The translations under genes were made by a program, and so were the position numbers. From an uncultured bacterium (GTDB taxonomy: Bacteria; Vulcanimicrobiota; JAJTBE01; CAYNGH01), in assembly GCA_964396845.1 (NCBI GenBank), contig CAYNGH010000002.1:17760-81759 (forward strand): a stretch of 64,000 nt of DNA, given 5' to 3'. The notes beneath the pieces were generated by a model. It was not told the origin of the DNA and did no database searches. It saw only the letters and a list, made by a program, of their open reading frames with translations. Below are positions 59,320 through 64,000 of the stretch, piece by piece. Within the stretch, counting starts at the first letter, position 1. Each line of letters opens with the position of its first letter.

Positions 59320-60699
59320 TTGAACAGTTCTGCAACAATAAACCCTCAGAATCCGGGAGATCCCCTGGAGCGCAGGGCTATAAGAAAACAGCTGGTGAGC
59401 CTGGCCCTGCCATCCATTGCCGATTACCTGCTCAAGATGATGGTGGGAGTTGTGGACACCATATTCGTGGGGAGGCTGGGCCCCCAGGCCCTGGCGGTAT
59501 CGGGGCTGTCCTGGGCCATTTTGTTTTACTGTTATATGCCCATGTGGGGGATGAACGCCGGGGTCAGCGCAGTGGTGGCCCGATACTGGGGCGCGGGAGA
59601 ATATGACAAGGCCCGCCGGGCTGCCGGGCAGGCTCTGATGCTCAATCTGCTTATGCCTCTGGTGGTGACAGTAATGCTGGTCATCTGGGGGAAGGATTTT
59701 CTTCGGCTGATGGGAGCCACTCCCAATGTGGTGGAAATGGGGGGCAGATATCTGGGAGTGTTGGTTTCCACCACCATTTATGCAGGAATGATGTTCGGTG
59801 CTCAGGCCATTTTAAAAGCCACCGGCGACACCCGCAGTCCCATGTTGATAACAGGCATAATCAATATTTTAAATGTGGGGCTGGATTACTGCCTGATATA
59901 CGGCAAGTTCGGCTTTCCCGCTCATGGGGTAATCGGGGCTGCCGAGGCTTCAGCCATTGTGAAACTGCTGGGGGCTTTTCTGGCAGTTGGGGGTCTTTTT
60001 ATCGGAGTTTTCAAGATTAAAGTCACCCCATCGGACTTTGCCCGGATTGACTGGGATATGATGAAGCGGATCATCCGTATCGGCTGGCCCACTATGATGG
60101 AAAACGGATTTTTCTCCTTAGCTTCTACCGCTTTTACCTGGGTTATTACCAGCCTTGGCACCACGGCCCTGGCAGCTCATACTGTGATACTCCGGGCCGA
60201 GTCCTTCTCATATATGCCTGGTATCGGTTTTTCCATTGCATCGGGGATTATCGTGGGTCAGTCCATCGGCGCAGGCAACCGGGAAAAAGCCAGGATGGCG
60301 GTCTGGGAATCAATCAAAATGGGATCTCTAATTATGGGGAGTATGGGGGTGGTGTTCTTTTTTGTTCCCCATCTGGTAATCAGGATTTTTACTGATTCCC
60401 CGGAAGTAATAGCCCAGGGAGTTGAAACCCTGAGGATCCTTGCCATCATTCAACCGGTTCAGGGACTTATGTTCTGCCTGCTGGGTTCTCTGAAGGGTGC
60501 CGGAGATACCGCCGCCACCATGAAGATATCCATGGTGGGACTCTGGCTGATACGGGTCCCCGGGGCTTATGTGCTGGCGGTGTTGCTGGGGCTGGGGGTC
60601 ACCGGCGCATGGGTGGCGATGTGTCTGGACATTGCCTTCAAGGCCATGTGGCTACTCCGTCGTTATCGTCACGGGGGTTGGCTGGATGTGAAAATTTAA
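59320..60699 (+). CDS. MATE-family efflux transporter
   Basis: 459 aa; 12 predicted TM helices with the MATE bipartite repeat. Confidence 0.85.
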   Translation: MNSSATINPQNPGDPLERRAIRKQLVSLALPSIADYLLKMMVGVVDTIFVGRLGPQALAVSGLSWAILFYCYMPMWGMNAGVSAVVARYWGAGEYDKARRAAGQALMLNLLMPLVVTVMLVIWGKDFLRLMGATPNVVEMGGRYLGVLVSTTIYAGMMFGAQAILKATGDTRSPMLITGIINILNVGLDYCLIYGKFGFPAHGVIGAAEASAIVKLLGAFLAVGGLFIGVFKIKVTPSDFARIDWDMMKRIIRIGWPTMMENGFFSLASTAFTWVITSLGTTALAAHTVILRAESFSYMPGIGFSIASGIIVGQSIGAGNREKARMAVWESIKMGSLIMGSMGVVFFFVPHLVIRIFTDSPEVIAQGVETLRILAIIQPVQGLMFCLLGSLKGAGDTAATMKISMVGLWLIRVPGAYVLAVLLGLGVTGAWVAMCLDIAFKAMWLLRRYRHGGWLDVKI

Positions 60700-61263
60700 T
60701 CATTTTCCCTGCAGAAGTTTCACCAATATCTGGTGGTTGCGTTTCCGGGCCAGTTCCAGGGGGGTCTGTCCTCTGTTGTCGGCGATATTTTTATCTGCCC
60801 CGGCATAAAGAAGCATCTTGATTTTTTCCGGCTCTCCCGACATCACCGACAGGTGCAGGGGAGTTTCCCCCAGGTTGTTTCTTGCGTTCACGCCGGCCCC
60901 GGCGCGAATCATCAGCCCCATCGAATCCCCGTCACCCCACCATGCTCCGTAGTGAAGAGAAGTGTTGCCGTCGCTGTTGGGCTGGTCGGGGTTAGCTCCC
61001 CGAGCCAGAAGAATCTTTACAGCCTCGCTGTTTTTGCGGAATGCCGCAAGATGCAGGGGAGTATTCTTTTTAGATTCATCTCCCTGGTTTATGATTTCCC
61101 GGTGGAGATTCAGAAGGGCTGTGAGCCGGGACAGGTCATTGTTGTGAATGGCATTCATAACCTGCACCAGAGGTGATTCCCCGGCCCTGACGGGAACTGC
61201 GCTCCAAGTCTGAATCCAGAGAAGGGTTAACATTGCCGTGATTAGAATTTTCCTGCTTTTCAT
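60700..61263 (-). CDS. Secreted ankyrin-repeat protein
   Basis: 187 aa; signal peptide MKSRKILITAMLTLLWIQTWSAVPVRAG, 4 ankyrin repeats (TPLHLAA, TSLHYGA, TPLHLSV, TPLELA). Confidence 0.7.
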   Translation of the reverse strand: MKSRKILITAMLTLLWIQTWSAVPVRAGESPLVQVMNAIHNNDLSRLTALLNLHREIINQGDESKKNTPLHLAAFRKNSEAVKILLARGANPDQPNSDGNTSLHYGAWWGDGDSMGLMIRAGAGVNARNNLGETPLHLSVMSGEPEKIKMLLYAGADKNIADNRGQTPLELARKRNHQILVKLLQGK

Positions 61264-61336
61264 CTTGTCATCTCCCTGGAGTAATTATATCATTTTCCCC
61301 GAAGAAAACAAAGAACACAAAGCATACCTCCTCAAG

Positions 61337-61380
61337 GGCAACAGAAGGGCAACAGAAGGTCAACAGAAGGTCAACAGGAT
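61337..61380. repeat. Four tandem 11-bp repeats (GGCAACAGAAG x2, GTCAACAGAAG, GTCAACAGGAT)
   Basis: Directly visible; located ~75-120 bp upstream of the minus-strand secreted ankyrin gene start (61263). Confidence 0.85.
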
Positions 61381-61566
61381 AAACCTCACCTCAACAGCAC
61401 AGTTGCAGGGATATATTCCTTGATATAACTCCAGGGGGGCTTCTCCGGCGGAATTGTGTAAATTTTTATTAATATTTCACTTATTTAAAAAGGGTTTCAG
61501 GATTTATGGCAAATAGAAGGTTTCAAACAAGGGTTTCAGGATTCCCTTTCAAGGGGAGGCGGGAAA

Positions 61567-62661
61567 ATGTTATTAAAAGAGGATTCAAGGATAAAACTGA
61601 ATGGCACCAGGCTTTTCACATGGGATCCGGGAACCACACCCGGGCCGGAAGGATGCATATACCCCGGCGACGAGGGCCGGGTTTTTGACCTGGATATGAC
61701 TGTTGCCGGCAGGACTTTTCGAGTTCTGATGTTTGACACCGATTATGGACGCCGGGAGCTTCTATGCGGGCGGTTTATTTATGGAAAGACCGCCAGACAG
61801 CTGTATTACAACACCACCCACACCGTCAGCATGACCCTTCAGCGATATTTTCCCGATGTCCTGGGCTATGTGGAACGAGCCAGGGAACATCAGATCCTGC
61901 GGGCCGGCAGAGTGCTTTGTATGGCTCCTTTCATCGAGGGACTTGCCAGCCAGGGAGATGATTTCAAGCGGAAGCCCGTTGCCGGGGATGATTTATTCAC
62001 CGCAGGGGCCACCGGGAATATTGACTGGGGGCCGGAAACCACCCGCATATTCTCCGATATATGCCCTGCGTCGGGGTCCACCATGGAGGCCTTTGTCAAC
62101 AAGGTTCTGGCGGAAACAACGCTGAAGAAGATTATATTCAACACTTCAACCACTGCAATAAACTCCATATACCGGGTCATTCCATCGATTCCCCCGGATG
62201 TGGAAGTGATACTCATCTGCTGGGAAGCCCTTTTTTCCGTATGGAGGGAAAATGTCACCCTTCCCGGCGGCGAGGTCATACACGGGGGAACCATCATCAA
62301 CCTGAACCGGGATCTGGATAATCCCGACTTTGAGCCGATTGCTCCCAGGGAAGTGGCAGATTACATCCACCAGGTCTTCCAGAGGGACAGGGTGAAGCTT
62401 CTGCCGGATATTCCCGGTGAGGTGGGGGAAAAGATTCAGGACAGCTGGCTCGGCCCTCTGACCTATGATTTTCTGGAGCTTTACAACGCAGGGATTGATC
62501 TGGGCCGGGAACCCTGGAGAAGCCGGGCAAAAACCGCCTGGGACATGCCTGGAGTTCAAGAGAACCTCCGGATGAAAGCCCCGGAAGTGTATCGGGATAT
62601 CCGGGAGATTTTCCCCAAAAATCCCCGCCAGAAACAAATTCGGGAACTGGTCATGATCTGA
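61567..62661 (+). CDS. Hypothetical protein
   Basis: 364-aa ORF; no motif recognised. Confidence 0.45.
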   Translation: MLLKEDSRIKLNGTRLFTWDPGTTPGPEGCIYPGDEGRVFDLDMTVAGRTFRVLMFDTDYGRRELLCGRFIYGKTARQLYYNTTHTVSMTLQRYFPDVLGYVERAREHQILRAGRVLCMAPFIEGLASQGDDFKRKPVAGDDLFTAGATGNIDWGPETTRIFSDICPASGSTMEAFVNKVLAETTLKKIIFNTSTTAINSIYRVIPSIPPDVEVILICWEALFSVWRENVTLPGGEVIHGGTIINLNRDLDNPDFEPIAPREVADYIHQVFQRDRVKLLPDIPGEVGEKIQDSWLGPLTYDFLELYNAGIDLGREPWRSRAKTAWDMPGVQENLRMKAPEVYRDIREIFPKNPRQKQIRELVMI

Positions 62662-62816
62662 CCGACACCCCGAAAAAAACAAGGAGGGCGTGCATGGAGC
62701 GCCTTTCTTTTTTTTCTTGGCCTTTTCTACAGGATTTCACTGGTGTTCGATTAAGCAATATACTCCCGTGATTACAAGGTTACAACGGACATTGGGGGGC
62801 GACAACGCTCATCGAT

Positions 62817-63640
62817 GCATAACCCACGGCCCGAGAGCTATGGCCTATCGAATCATAAACAACGGCCCGAGAGCTATATCCAAGCGATCATGACAATCCC
62901 GACTCATATTTTCCATTTTCTAAAAATGGGGGGTCACTTCTAAAGTGCCGGTGGGTGGTTATTTTTGTTCACATTCAACAACCACCCTTCCGGCAACAGC
63001 TTCCAATCAATCGGAAGATGGATTAATAAGAAAACAAAACCTGACAACGCCTATCGAATCATAAACAACGGCCCGAGGGTTTTATCCCAAGGATCATGAG
63101 AATCCCGACTCATTTTTCCCCGGTTTTAAACCGGGCGATACATAACCCACGGCCCGAGAGCTATGGCCTATCGAATCATAAACAACGGCCCGAGAGTTAT
63201 ATCCCACCGATCATGACAATCCCGTGTCATATTGGGCACTTCCAAAGTGCCAAAAGAACTTCATGAGGGCTTCTGCCATTTAAATGGGGGAGGATCATTC
63301 TACCAGATTTTTAAGGAAATTGAAAACACTGGCTGTTAAGTAAGTTTGATCCTGAGCCAGGTAAAACAAAACAAAACCTGACAACGCCCACCGAATCATA
63401 ACCCACGGCCCAATGATTGTATCCCACCGATCATGACAATCCCGTATCATTTTGGGCACTTCCAAAGTGCCCCACGGCCCGAGAGCTATGTCCTGCCGAT
63501 CGTGACAATCCCGACTCATGTTTCCCGGTTCTAAACCGGGCGACTCATATTTTCCCCTTTTTCCAAAAAGGGGCCGGCTTATTTTTCCCATTCCCAATGG
63601 GAGCCGGGAGGAATTTCCCCGGCGGTTTATAATAAAAACT
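62817..63640. repeat. Noncoding array of five imperfect direct repeats (...ACGGCCCGAGAGCTAT-N8-12-GATCATGACAATCCCGACTCAT-ATTTTCC), each followed by a different short perfect palindrome
   Basis: Core blocks ACGGCCCGAGAGCTAT at ~62826, 62863, 63068, 63147, 63188, 63404, 63475 and GATCATGACAATCCCGACTCAT at ~62886, 63092, 63209, 63429, 63497. Palindromes: CCATTTTCTAAAAATGG, CACTTCTAAAGTG, CCCGGTTTTAAACCGGG, GGCACTTCCAAAGTGCC (x2), CCCGGTTCTAAACCGGG, CCCCTTTTTCCAAAAAGGGG, CCCATTCCCAATGGG. Confidence 0.75.
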
Positions 63641-63665
63641 ATAGAATATTATGGAGGCATCAGCA

Positions 63666-64000
63666 GTGAATATTAAAGACGGACTACTCTATACCCAGGA
63701 GCATGAATGGATCAGCGTTGACGGCGACACCGCCACTATGGGAATTACCGCCTTTGCAGTGGAGCAGTTAGGTGATATTGTGTTTGTGGAGCTTCCCCAG
63801 CCAGGGGATGAACTGGAGCAGTCGGGAAATGTGGGAGTGGTGGAATCGGTGAAGACCGTATCGGATATTTTTGCTCCCATCAGCGGAAAGGTGACGGAAG
63901 TCAACTCAGTGCTTCTCCAGGAGATTGACGGCGAAGACAACCCGGAATTTCACCCTGAATACATCAACGAGGACCCATACGAAAAGGGATGGTTCCTCAA
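63666..64000 (+). CDS. gcvH: Glycine cleavage system H protein, N-terminal part (continues beyond window end)
   Basis: GTG start with GGAGG SD; VNIKDGLLYTQEHEWISVDGDTATMGITAFAVEQLGDIVFVELPQPG...VESVKTVSDIFAPISGKV contains the lipoyl-lysine motif ESVK. Confidence 0.85.
   Translation, partial: MNIKDGLLYTQEHEWISVDGDTATMGITAFAVEQLGDIVFVELPQPGDELEQSGNVGVVESVKTVSDIFAPISGKVTEVNSVLLQEIDGEDNPEFHPEYINEDPYEKGWFL

Follow-up and report, generated by a model that had tools for sequence, protein, structure and literature searches.

Modular hairpin repeats between a hypothetical gene and gcvH in an uncultivated bacterium: probably a local cluster of a lineage-specific interspersed family

Interspersed hairpin repeats are common in bacteria. 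Composite families with a modular build have been described for BOX, BIME and NIME elements (PMC3049150). The intergenic array analysed here occupies positions 62801-63602 of a 64-kb stretch of DNA (contig CAYNGH010000002.1; hereafter the window, meaning the whole stretch) from an uncultivated bacterium and lies ahead of gcvH. Judged by architecture, its closest analogues appear to be BIME/REP clusters, BOX elements and NIMEs. It is best described as a new family of a known kind, standing outside any named family, because the REP tests (GTAG head, inverted pairs) and the MITE test (terminal inverted repeats) failed. The array is repetitive, its modules are dispersed and restricted to one lineage, its hairpins are under constraint, and it is independent of gcvH. 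Taken together, we consider it probable that the array is a local cluster of lineage-specific, modular interspersed intergenic repeats that are selfish or neutral.

The gene for a hypothetical 364-aa protein (61567-62661, + strand) and gcvH (GTG start at 63666, + strand) are separated by 1004 bp of intergenic DNA, within which all repeat modules share a single orientation (+). An earlier note, made from the sequence alone, had placed a structured repeat array at 62817-63640; the array is real, but its extent is 62801-63602, with both ends set by homology with other copies and with a sister species. All sequence elements listed in that note are present in the window, including its eight short perfect inverted repeats (8/8, all perfect), except that the centre of CCATTTT/AAAATGG is CTA and not CT. 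The repeated head reported to precede two units was likewise found, as AAAAC(AAAAC)CTGACAACGCC at 63031 and 63363. Longer modules, which had not been separated, are interleaved in the array, namely M3 (62947-63017) and U1 with its tail (63289-63388, ~100 nt). A repeat search grouped the boxes into a 111-nt register with five copies, whose identity to the reference copy is 60-100%; it also returned a 16-nt CCGACTCATATTTTCC family (D2) with five members, and the copy in the 63136-63233 region is 89% identical to 62813-62923. No array-like sequence was found elsewhere in the 64-kb window.

The basic unit runs from a head, (CTGACAACGCC)-YAYCGAATCATAAMC, through an X box (ACGGCCCGAGAGCTATRTCCCACC) and a Y box (GATCATGACAATCCCGACTCAT) to a leader, RTT(TT), and a hairpin. 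The X and Y boxes form a pair of ~46 nt that is conserved in sequence. Allowing up to 3 mismatches, the X motif ACGGCCCGAGAGCTAT occurs six times in the array (62826, 62862, 63068, 63149, 63185 and 63474), compared to 0.17 expected from shuffles; a seventh, diverged copy (ACGGCCCAATGATTGT at 63405) was found separately, and the lone match outside the array (31533, 3 mismatches) is a chance occurrence. The Y box GATCATGACAATCCCGACTCAT is present in five copies (62886, 63092, 63209, 63429 and 63498; expectation 0.00), and every X and Y copy in the window lies on the + strand. Spacings between repeats amount to 36, 69, 81, 117, 206 and 220 nt. The X box alone can duplicate with a 36-nt period, and the last 11-13 nt of the Y box together with leader and hairpin can repeat on their own, head to tail, e.g. 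at 63524-63602. Both boxes are kept as sequence rather than structure, the canonical Y box having a folding energy of 0 kcal/mol. Two candidate structures were consequently dropped: a conserved hairpin within the Y box (ATGAC..GTCAT), of which the canonical copy is unfolded, and an X-box hairpin (GGCC..GGCC), which only some variants possess and whose pairing is inconsistent.

The hairpins behave in the opposite manner, with their pairing kept and their sequence free to vary. Eight perfect palindromes were mapped in the window: CCATTTT-cta-AAAATGG (62913-62929), CACTT-cta-AAGTG (62935-62947), CCCGGTTT-t-AAACCGGG (63119-63135, + strand; a type also seen at the related loci L022 and L028), GGGCACTT-cca-AAGTGCC(C) (twice, 63234-63251 and 63454-63472, + strand), CCCGGTT-cta-AACCGGG (63524-63540), CCCCTTTTT-cc-AAAAAGGGG (63554-63573) and TCCCATT-ccc-AATGGGA (63586-63602). 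As DNA hairpins they have folding energies between -2.9 and -7.6 kcal/mol. Instead of a distinct palindrome for each copy, as had been proposed, they represent about six recurrent types that are seen again at other loci. Their 5′ flank reads CAT-RTT(TT), and their 3′ flank is variable (TCACG, CACGG, GGGG...). A T-run precedes the hairpins on the + strand; read on the - strand, an A-run follows them. From the Y-box CAT to the hairpin centre the distance is always 11 nt, except in the CCCATTTT type, where it is 14 nt, and the hairpin types are therefore homologous, differing by substitutions matched on the opposite arm.

For a closer look at this variation, 24 non-identical hairpin sequences, drawn from the window and from related loci, were aligned without gaps on their centres. 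All share the apex TT-YYA-AA, with two apical pairs that are always T-A and a centre of C/T-C/T-A. At the six outer stem positions, G-C, C-G, A-T or T-A pairs vary together; 93.8% of cells are paired (a fraction inflated by selection, as discussed below) compared to 63% in column shuffles, and double-sided changes affect 6 of the 8 stem pairs. The covariation score reached 0.71, against 0.16 in shuffles and at most 0.30 for slid partners. Mismatches in imperfect hairpins were of the G.T (2 rows) and A.C (3 rows) types and favor neither strand. Elsewhere in the window (the other 62.7 kb, either strand), none of 47 TTYYAAA sites is palindromic. An invariant, asymmetric apex next to a conserved box exceeds what pairing alone needs.

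The earlier note had suggested that the hairpins bind a protein, for instance a recombinase or a partition-like protein. As double-stranded binding sites they are unlikely, because arm sequences differ while only complementarity is kept, so that no single dimer binding double-stranded DNA could read them; it is possible, however, that putative single-stranded hairpins are recognised by shape and apex. A broader version of the proposal holds that the array is a functional chromosomal protein-binding site, such as an iteron or partition (sopC/parS) site, a recombinase site, a transposase end or the origin of an HUH nickase. It finds support in the 46-nt X-Y box, which is conserved as sequence and not structure and occurs five times in one orientation at irregular spacing, in the fixed 11-nt distance between box and hairpin centre, and in a GATC within the Y box. 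Yet screening ~45 open reading frames (ORFs) of the window against Pfam and NCBIfam revealed no Cas, transposase, integrase, Rep or ParB protein, and no par gene was found in these 64 kb. In addition, an inverted second end is missing, plasmid or phage similarity was not detected, and the modules are scattered over at least eight other chromosomal intergenic sites (see below). We therefore regard a dedicated binding site as quite improbable. On architecture, Tn7-like TnsB sites, integron attC sites, iterons and sopC were each rejected, given the lack of a second inverted end and of integrase or par genes, and the variable arms.

In agreement with the earlier note, the array is not a CRISPR locus either. 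Its spacing is irregular, with no regular tandem array called by TRF; its variable parts are palindromes of 13-21 nt belonging to about six recurrent types rather than unique spacers; and there is no Cas domain among the ORFs just mentioned.

That the modules form a dispersed family became evident from metagenomes. When 241 million metagenome records were searched for the Y-box pattern, 34 loci matched, 26 of them isolated chance matches with the neighbouring boxes missing; two matches on viral contigs are chance as well, again without neighbouring boxes. The other eight of the 34 (L009, L010, L011, L016, L022, L026, L028 and L031) display the full X-Y-leader-hairpin arrangement, often repeated, and all were recovered from a pair of JGI samples (Ga0334889 and Ga0334890). 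Their similarity to the window is confined to the array (BLAST identity 75-94%), and they share U1, M3, further modules and the same hairpin types. Within each of them, X, Y and leader-hairpin units are co-oriented, as in the window, while module order is shuffled between loci.

Judged from shared sequence, the eight contigs are of the same organism or population as the window, since a single ENA assembly (ERZ27252305) encodes the TPR protein of L011, the 364-aa protein and gcvH. Specifically, the TPR protein P0022, whose gene stops 6 nt short of the L011 array, has a 100% identical counterpart on this assembly (L043), which also carries the window's 364-aa protein (L001) and its gcvH (L048). 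Modules are hence found at no fewer than eight intergenic loci besides the window, or at least nine in all, in one organism. The flanking genes differ at each locus (a cysteine-desulfurase-like operon, dtd, TPR proteins, an FGE-like gene), and repeats are located upstream, downstream, between convergent and between divergent genes, with ~6 flanking genes co-oriented with the repeats and 3 opposed. Short-read contigs break at the arrays (L001 at window position 62799, L043 inside one), which together with the varied flanks fits the behaviour of a dispersed repeat. Of the options offered in the earlier note, a miniature repeat family multiplying in tandem is thus the one borne out, its dispersed-copy test being positive at eight or more loci.

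Beyond this organism, the family was not encountered. In the sister species (ENA assembly ERZ21873832, whose orthologues of the 364-aa protein, the TPR protein and GcvH are 78%, 82% and 85% identical), contigs L039 (18.1 kb) and L047 (15.6 kb) contain no repeats, and the repeat-free stretches include the one ahead of gcvH and the one downstream of the orthologous TPR-protein gene. The sister's neighbouring genes also differ, and a precise empty site is not alignable. The fetched stretches of more distant relatives (L040, L041 and L042; 42-65% identity), some of which are metagenome-assembled genomes (MAGs) labelled Eremiobacteraeota/Vulcanimicrobiota and one of which is a 7.6-Mb genome, were likewise free of repeats. 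An association of the array with 364-aa orthologues was rejected, as gene contexts differ and repeats are absent in L039-L042. The combined X-Y pattern gave one chance match, in Streptomyces, among 185,579 GTDB species representatives (the source species not included), and blastn of the array against plasmid and phage collections gave no match, dismissing a plasmid or phage origin. We know of no phage or integrase that associates with this repeat family. Its absence from the sampled sequence of the sister species and relatives and from GTDB representatives, plasmids and phages indicates, on sequence grounds, that the family is young and limited to one species or genus.

Could the array instead encode structured RNA? 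An array of small structured RNAs, another suggestion of the earlier note, was not supported. Rfam 15 returned 0 matches at the gathering threshold over the whole window, and at E ≤ 10 the region gave only chance-level matches (Yfr20, miRNA models, a ctRNA); the eight related loci produced generic hairpin matches only, and ARAGORN detected neither tRNA nor tmRNA. Folding z-scores are alike on both strands (-4.8 and -4.6). Promoter- or terminator-like sites were not found per unit on either strand, and their number does not exceed that in shuffles. Sigma-70, sigma-54 and Bacteroidetes-type promoters in the units were rejected for want of a hexamer pair at workable spacing, and an array of intrinsic terminators or small RNA genes was rejected with the per-unit promoter and the hairpin-U-tract missing.

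A related proposal is a single transcribed multi-hairpin non-coding RNA, serving as a sponge for a CsrA/RsmA-like protein if read from the - strand (loop UUURGAA; motifs CGGGAUU, GGAAAA and UGGGAC) or as a C-rich anti-Shine-Dalgarno RNA if read from the + strand (loop UUCYAAA; motifs AAUCCCG, UUUUCC and GUCCCA). An apex that stays invariant on covarying stems would suit such an RNA, as would the base composition: the + strand has 23 TCC versus 9 GGA, TCCC is twice as frequent as in the window background, and a 69-nt core unit bears 3-4 GGA on the - strand, a density resembling that of CsrB/RsmZ. With these sponge RNAs the array also has in common imperfect tandem repeats, many small hairpins, and GGA in loops or linkers of the - strand. 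The best sub-threshold Rfam match is to the cyanobacterial small RNA Yfr20, again on the - strand (23.1 bits versus a threshold of 44, E = 0.15). A promoter-like - strand site is located at 63676-63648, and the terminator at 62681-62709, with its A- and T-runs, could end - strand transcripts. Finally, the organism is flagellated and chemotactic, a lifestyle often tied to CsrA.

Against this, overall TCC density is at background (27.9 vs. 25.8 per kb), half of the apices read UAG or UAA on the - strand and hence lack GGA, and neither the z-scores nor the mismatch types single out a strand. The canonical Y box is unfolded, no Rfam family reaches threshold, and, unlike CsrB/RsmZ, the array has no promoter/terminator frame and exists in at least eight further shuffled, dispersed copies that adopt every orientation relative to genes. 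That csrA was not found in the 155 kb searched is uninformative. A transcribed non-coding RNA thus seems unlikely.

The possibility of a protein-coding repeat was rejected because frames are inconsistent across loci and strands (6-100 codons), variable codons are non-synonymous and Pfam matches are lacking; the latter search covered the 100-aa - strand ORF at 63295-63597, mini-ORFs on the + strand and a 127-codon frame of L010. The mini-ORFs comprise 10-11 codons starting at the ATG of the Y box (MTIPTHVFPIF, MTIPTHVSRF, MTITNHIPRF) and stop at the TAA of the apex (TTC-TAA). They occur at 62890-62947, 63096-63266 and 63433-63534 and at related loci; with a CCA apex, the frame runs into the next unit. 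No Shine-Dalgarno sequence accompanies them on the + strand, and the fixed spacing of 11 or 14 nt probably generates them as a by-product.

A further proposal would make the array a cis-regulatory 5′ leader, riboswitch-like or an attenuator, for the gcvH-gcvP operon, perhaps with the MTIPTH..F mini-ORF. In its favor, array and gcvH run in the same direction with the array ending 63 nt ahead of the start codon, and the mini-ORFs stop at the TTC-TAA apex in three hairpin types. However, the native upstream region of gcvH (63603-63668, + strand), comprising GGAATTTCCCCGGC, TATAAT at 63627, GGAGG and the GTG at 63666, bounds the array on its right. In an alignment, window 63605-63665 (GGAATTTCCCCGGCGGTTTATAATAAA...GGAGGCATCAGCAGTG) is conserved with the region upstream of the sister species' gcvH, as a ~62-nt block matching L039 3417-3560 (- strand; GGAATTT-CCCGGC-GTTTATAATAAA...GGAGG...GTG) that in the sister directly follows another gene's terminator. 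This block is probably the gcvH promoter and ribosome-binding site. The gene itself was confirmed by NCBIfam; it has its start in common with the sister gcvH, to which it is 85% identical. Because the conserved TATAAT-GGAGG-GTG block lies downstream of the array, the array is not the gcvH leader. Moreover, the same modules sit beside unrelated genes, even at 3′ ends of convergent genes; neither a glycine riboswitch ahead of gcvH (window or sister species) nor any other Rfam match was found; and the mini-ORF, with no Shine-Dalgarno sequence and non-synonymous variable codons, owes its agreement in frame to the ungapped homology of the hairpin types. A leader function is accordingly the least credible of the explanations considered here.

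On the left, the array is flanked by the intrinsic terminator of the 364-aa gene (62681-62709, + strand), which was called by a terminator scan and lies outside it. The stop codon and terminator hairpin are conserved to ~62720, with hairpin and T-run kept in the sister contig L039. This terminator looks bidirectional, as it is preceded by AAAAAAA and followed by TTTCTTTTTTTT (window 62668-62720), though no convergent gene is annotated. From these conserved sequences on either side, the array is seen to fill the space between a conserved terminator and a conserved promoter region.

Exactly at the array, gene order differs from that of the sister species (window 59320-64000 vs. L039 1-8400), which has gcvP2-gcvP1-gcvH upstream of MatE, encoded by the opposite strand, and a DUF885 gene after the 364-aa gene. 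Either the chromosome was rearranged at the repeat cluster, or the window assembly contains a false join. The latter belongs to the possibility that the array is an assembly artefact, in which a repeat was collapsed or is chimeric, or in which the contigs of the 364-aa gene and of gcvH were wrongly linked through a repeat. The break in gene order and the contig ends within or next to arrays (L001, L043) would be compatible with it, and so would the start of L048, an independent megahit contig from ENA: its first ~55 nt carry hairpin modules other than those of window 62897-62950 (CCCGATTCTAAATCGGG + CACTTCTGAAGTG in L048 1-60, CCATTTTCTAAAAATGG + CACTTCTAAAGTG in the window), either because modules are swapped between strains or because one assembly followed a paralogous copy. 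From there on, however, L048 is 100% identical to window 62952-64000, reproducing ~650 bp of the array (its right part) and the gcvH junction, which argues against the collapsed-repeat artefact that the earlier note had named as a concern. Furthermore, the order X-Y-hairpins-M3-head-X-Y recurs in L010 (79% over 293 nt), and the 364-aa protein and gcvH are both recorded on one 91,531-bp NCBI contig. An artefact is therefore very improbable.

For a cluster of selfish or neutral repeats, the following history can be proposed. The array would have grown in place by unit duplication, since the 36-, 69-, 81- and 117-nt periods and the head-to-tail leader-hairpin units fit slipped-strand or unequal recombination, and the family might have reached new sites by trans-acting mobilisation or recombination. 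Hairpins may have been kept because a single-stranded (DNA or RNA) stem-loop with a fixed apex and a neighbouring box would be the feature that is recognised and propagated, conceivably by an HUH/Y1-type single-strand DNA enzyme, as in the analogous cases of REP-RAYT and IS200/IS605 ends. Effects on neighbouring genes, including RNA 3′-end protection, processing or a recombination hot spot, would then be by-products, with no dedicated role for gcvH.

Several points weigh against this interpretation. No terminal inverted repeats, GTAG-type REP head or inverted REP pairs were found, and no defined family fits. Since a mobilising enzyme, a target-site duplication and a clean empty-versus-filled site were not found either, mobility is deduced from dispersal only. 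Copy number and genome-wide distribution are bounded by the ~155 kb of lineage sequence examined. Confirmation by the second assembly starts at 62952, leaving the left junction and 62801-62950 outside it. As to the hairpin alignment, the set was picked for palindromy (at least 5 bp), which inflates the paired fraction, and many copies are recent duplicates rather than independent events. Last, the TT-YYA-AA apex and the 46-nt box suggest specific recognition, which might equally be of the RNA-protein or RNA-RNA kind.

Carried further, this last point leads to the idea that box, 11-nt spacer and a hairpin with free stem and fixed apex constitute the recognition unit of an undescribed system, either an element mobilised as single-stranded DNA or a decoy RNA. 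In the DNA version, it would possibly be a new type of non-autonomous element, with an HUH-type or other enzyme reading hairpin shape and apex. In the RNA version, a multi-copy decoy or sponge RNA would possibly display identical 7-nt loops in large number; on the + strand these read UUCUAAA, UUCCAAA and UUUUAAA, following the Y-U-NNN-A-A pattern of anticodon loops, and on the - strand they contain GGA or AGA. We consider such a system rather unlikely, and a selfish or neutral repeat cluster remains our preferred interpretation.

Read from left to right on the + strand, the cluster is composed as follows. It opens with a first, partial X module (GACAACGCTCATCGATGCATAACCC-ACGGCCCGAGAGCTATGGCCT, 62801-62846) that is homologous to the CTGACAACGCC-YAYCGAATCATAAMC-ACGGCCC heads. 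Unit 1 (62847-62912), with X box ATCGAATCATAAACAACGGCCCGAGAGCTATATCC, Y box GATCATGACAATCCCGACTCAT and a T-rich leader, is followed by two hairpin modules (CCATTTT-cta-AAAATGG and GGtCACTT-cta-AAGTGCC, 62913-62949; L048 differs here) and by M3 (62947-63017), consisting of a long hairpin, GCCGGTGGGTGGTT...AACCACCCTTCCGGC (-13.1 kcal/mol as DNA), and CTTCC-aatcaatc-GGAAG. M3 is also present at the paralogous locus L010 (733-826). Unit 2 (63031-63118) contains the head AAAACAAAACCTGACAACGCC, an X box, Y box GATCATGAGAATCCCGACTCAT and leader, and unit 3 (63136-63233) a partial and a full X box, Y box GATCATGACAATCCCGTGTCAT and leader. Three longer pieces come next (63252-63388): the module fragment AAAAGAACTTCATGAGGGCTTC, the palindrome CCATTTAAATGG, and U1 (GGAGGATCATTCTACCAG...GAGCCAGGT) with its (AAAAC)3CTGACAACGCC tail. 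U1 recurs at 80-94% identity in L010 (twice), L011/L043, L016, L022 and L028; covariation within it was rejected, as changes break the candidate pairings. The (AAAAC)3 microsatellite at its end (63363-63377) varies in length among copies, since others have (AAAAC)2 or interrupted forms.

Unit 4 (63391-63453), with the diverged X box ACGGCCCAATGATTGTATCCC, Y box GATCATGACAATCCCGTATCAT and leader, leads into the hairpin GGGCACTT-cca-AAGTGCCC (63454-63472; -7.6 kcal/mol as DNA), and unit 5 (63473-63523; 69 nt past the unit 4 start) has a short X box, Y box GATCGTGACAATCCCGACTCAT and leader. The right end (63524-63602) is formed by three leader-hairpin units arranged head to tail, i.e. CCCGGTT-cta-AACCGGG, CGACTCATATTTT + CCCCTTTTT-cc-AAAAAGGGG, and CCGGCTTATTTT + TCCCATT-ccc-AATGGGA. 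All of these units lie on the + strand. Related loci harbor an additional ~200-nt module, M4 (TTTTTTGCCGGGCTGGTTTGACAGTCTGC...TCGCCTCTTTGATGA; L010 300-480, L011 1375-1560, L022 935-1100 and L028 1235-1400), which sits within or beside X boxes and is not present in the window. Its - strand open frame (..RIDNIQNFFLFEAGTFVPDEFEKVVVKYYQMSRCQMKGSRPMQTVKPARQ..) has no Pfam match, and M4 might be what is left of a gene.

The surrounding 64 kb are ordinary chromosome, encoding fliF, a chemotaxis cluster, pyruvate:ferredoxin oxidoreductase, mutS, mutL, ychF and cdaA. Between 508 and 20429, the window codes for FliF, CheX/CheC, two CheA-like proteins, CheW, CheR, CheB, MCP and a 646-aa HEAT-repeat protein, and the organism is, from this gene content, evidently motile. 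The 364-aa protein is a member of a conserved family that matches neither Pfam nor NCBIfam; its 21 homologues (54-78% identical) all come from uncultivated relatives. In the window, as in the sister species, its gene comes after those for MatE and an ankyrin protein, and in more distant relatives it is placed between rapZ-cofD and dus. Near the homologue in the 7.6-Mb relative, L040 4478-5806 encodes a group II intron reverse transcriptase (RVT_1 + GIIM) and an rve-family transposase, both unrelated to the repeat family.

An uncultivated bacterium, with distant relatives among MAGs labelled Eremiobacterota/Vulcanimicrobiota, thus has its own modular family of intergenic hairpin repeats. These repeats break short-read assemblies of the organism, lie where its gene order departs from that of the sister species, and could pass for a gcvH regulatory leader or a small RNA array. 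Being young (absent at ~80% protein identity) and equipped with perfectly paired, covarying stems, the family offers a clean case for the study of repeat spread and palindrome upkeep. Wider interest would follow only if box and apex proved to be the recognition site of a new mobilising enzyme or RNA-binding protein.

With the BIME, REP and REPIN elements of Enterobacteria and Pseudomonas (RAYT/TnpA-REP), the array has in common dispersed extragenic stem-loop palindromes, mosaic arrays with linker motifs, restriction to a lineage and covarying stems. Unlike in REPs, no GTAG or GTGG is found at the 5′ foot of the palindromes on either strand of the array, and the palindromes are shorter (13-21 nt) and perfect. 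Units are all direct, in contrast to the alternating or inverted arrangement of BIMEs and REPINs, and inverted repeats exist only between the palindromes themselves. About six stem types share one leader and apex and are joined by a 46-nt non-palindromic box, and no gene for a RAYT (Y1 HUH transposase) is known from this organism, none being present among the window ORFs (with ~155 kb of lineage sequence available). The MITE test found no inverted pairs bounding the array or its units, the left end (GACAACGC...) being unrelated to the hairpin run at the right end.

The sub-terminal hairpin ends of IS200/IS605-family elements, and of the non-autonomous PATEs derived from them, resemble the array in having a small hairpin with a short conserved sequence some nucleotides 5′ of it. 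By analogy, recognition would be of the single-stranded hairpin and not of the stem sequence. Dissimilar are the lack of tnpA and tnpB in the window, the lack of distinct left and right ends, and the arrangement of units as head-to-tail multimers.

Like the BOX elements of Streptococcus pneumoniae and S. suis (boxA-boxBn-boxC; PMC3049150), the array consists of distinct modules, one of which occurs in variable tandem number. Both are intergenic and dispersed, with predicted stem-loops and a copy number that probably changes via slippage or unequal crossover. Yet there is no sequence similarity to BOX, terminal inverted repeats (the boxA-boxC pair in BOX) are missing, module order is more variable, and the tandem module here is a leader and hairpin with a variable stem. 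The neisserial NIMEs (RS units separated by dRS3 inverted repeats) and rhizobial RIMEs, finally, also combine intergenic short units in alternation with small inverted repeats, and they are recombination substrates, as the position of the array at a synteny difference from the sister species may recall. Whereas in NIMEs the dRS3 palindrome is constant and the units vary, the array reported here shows an unusual architecture in which boxes and apex are constant and the stems are free to vary.

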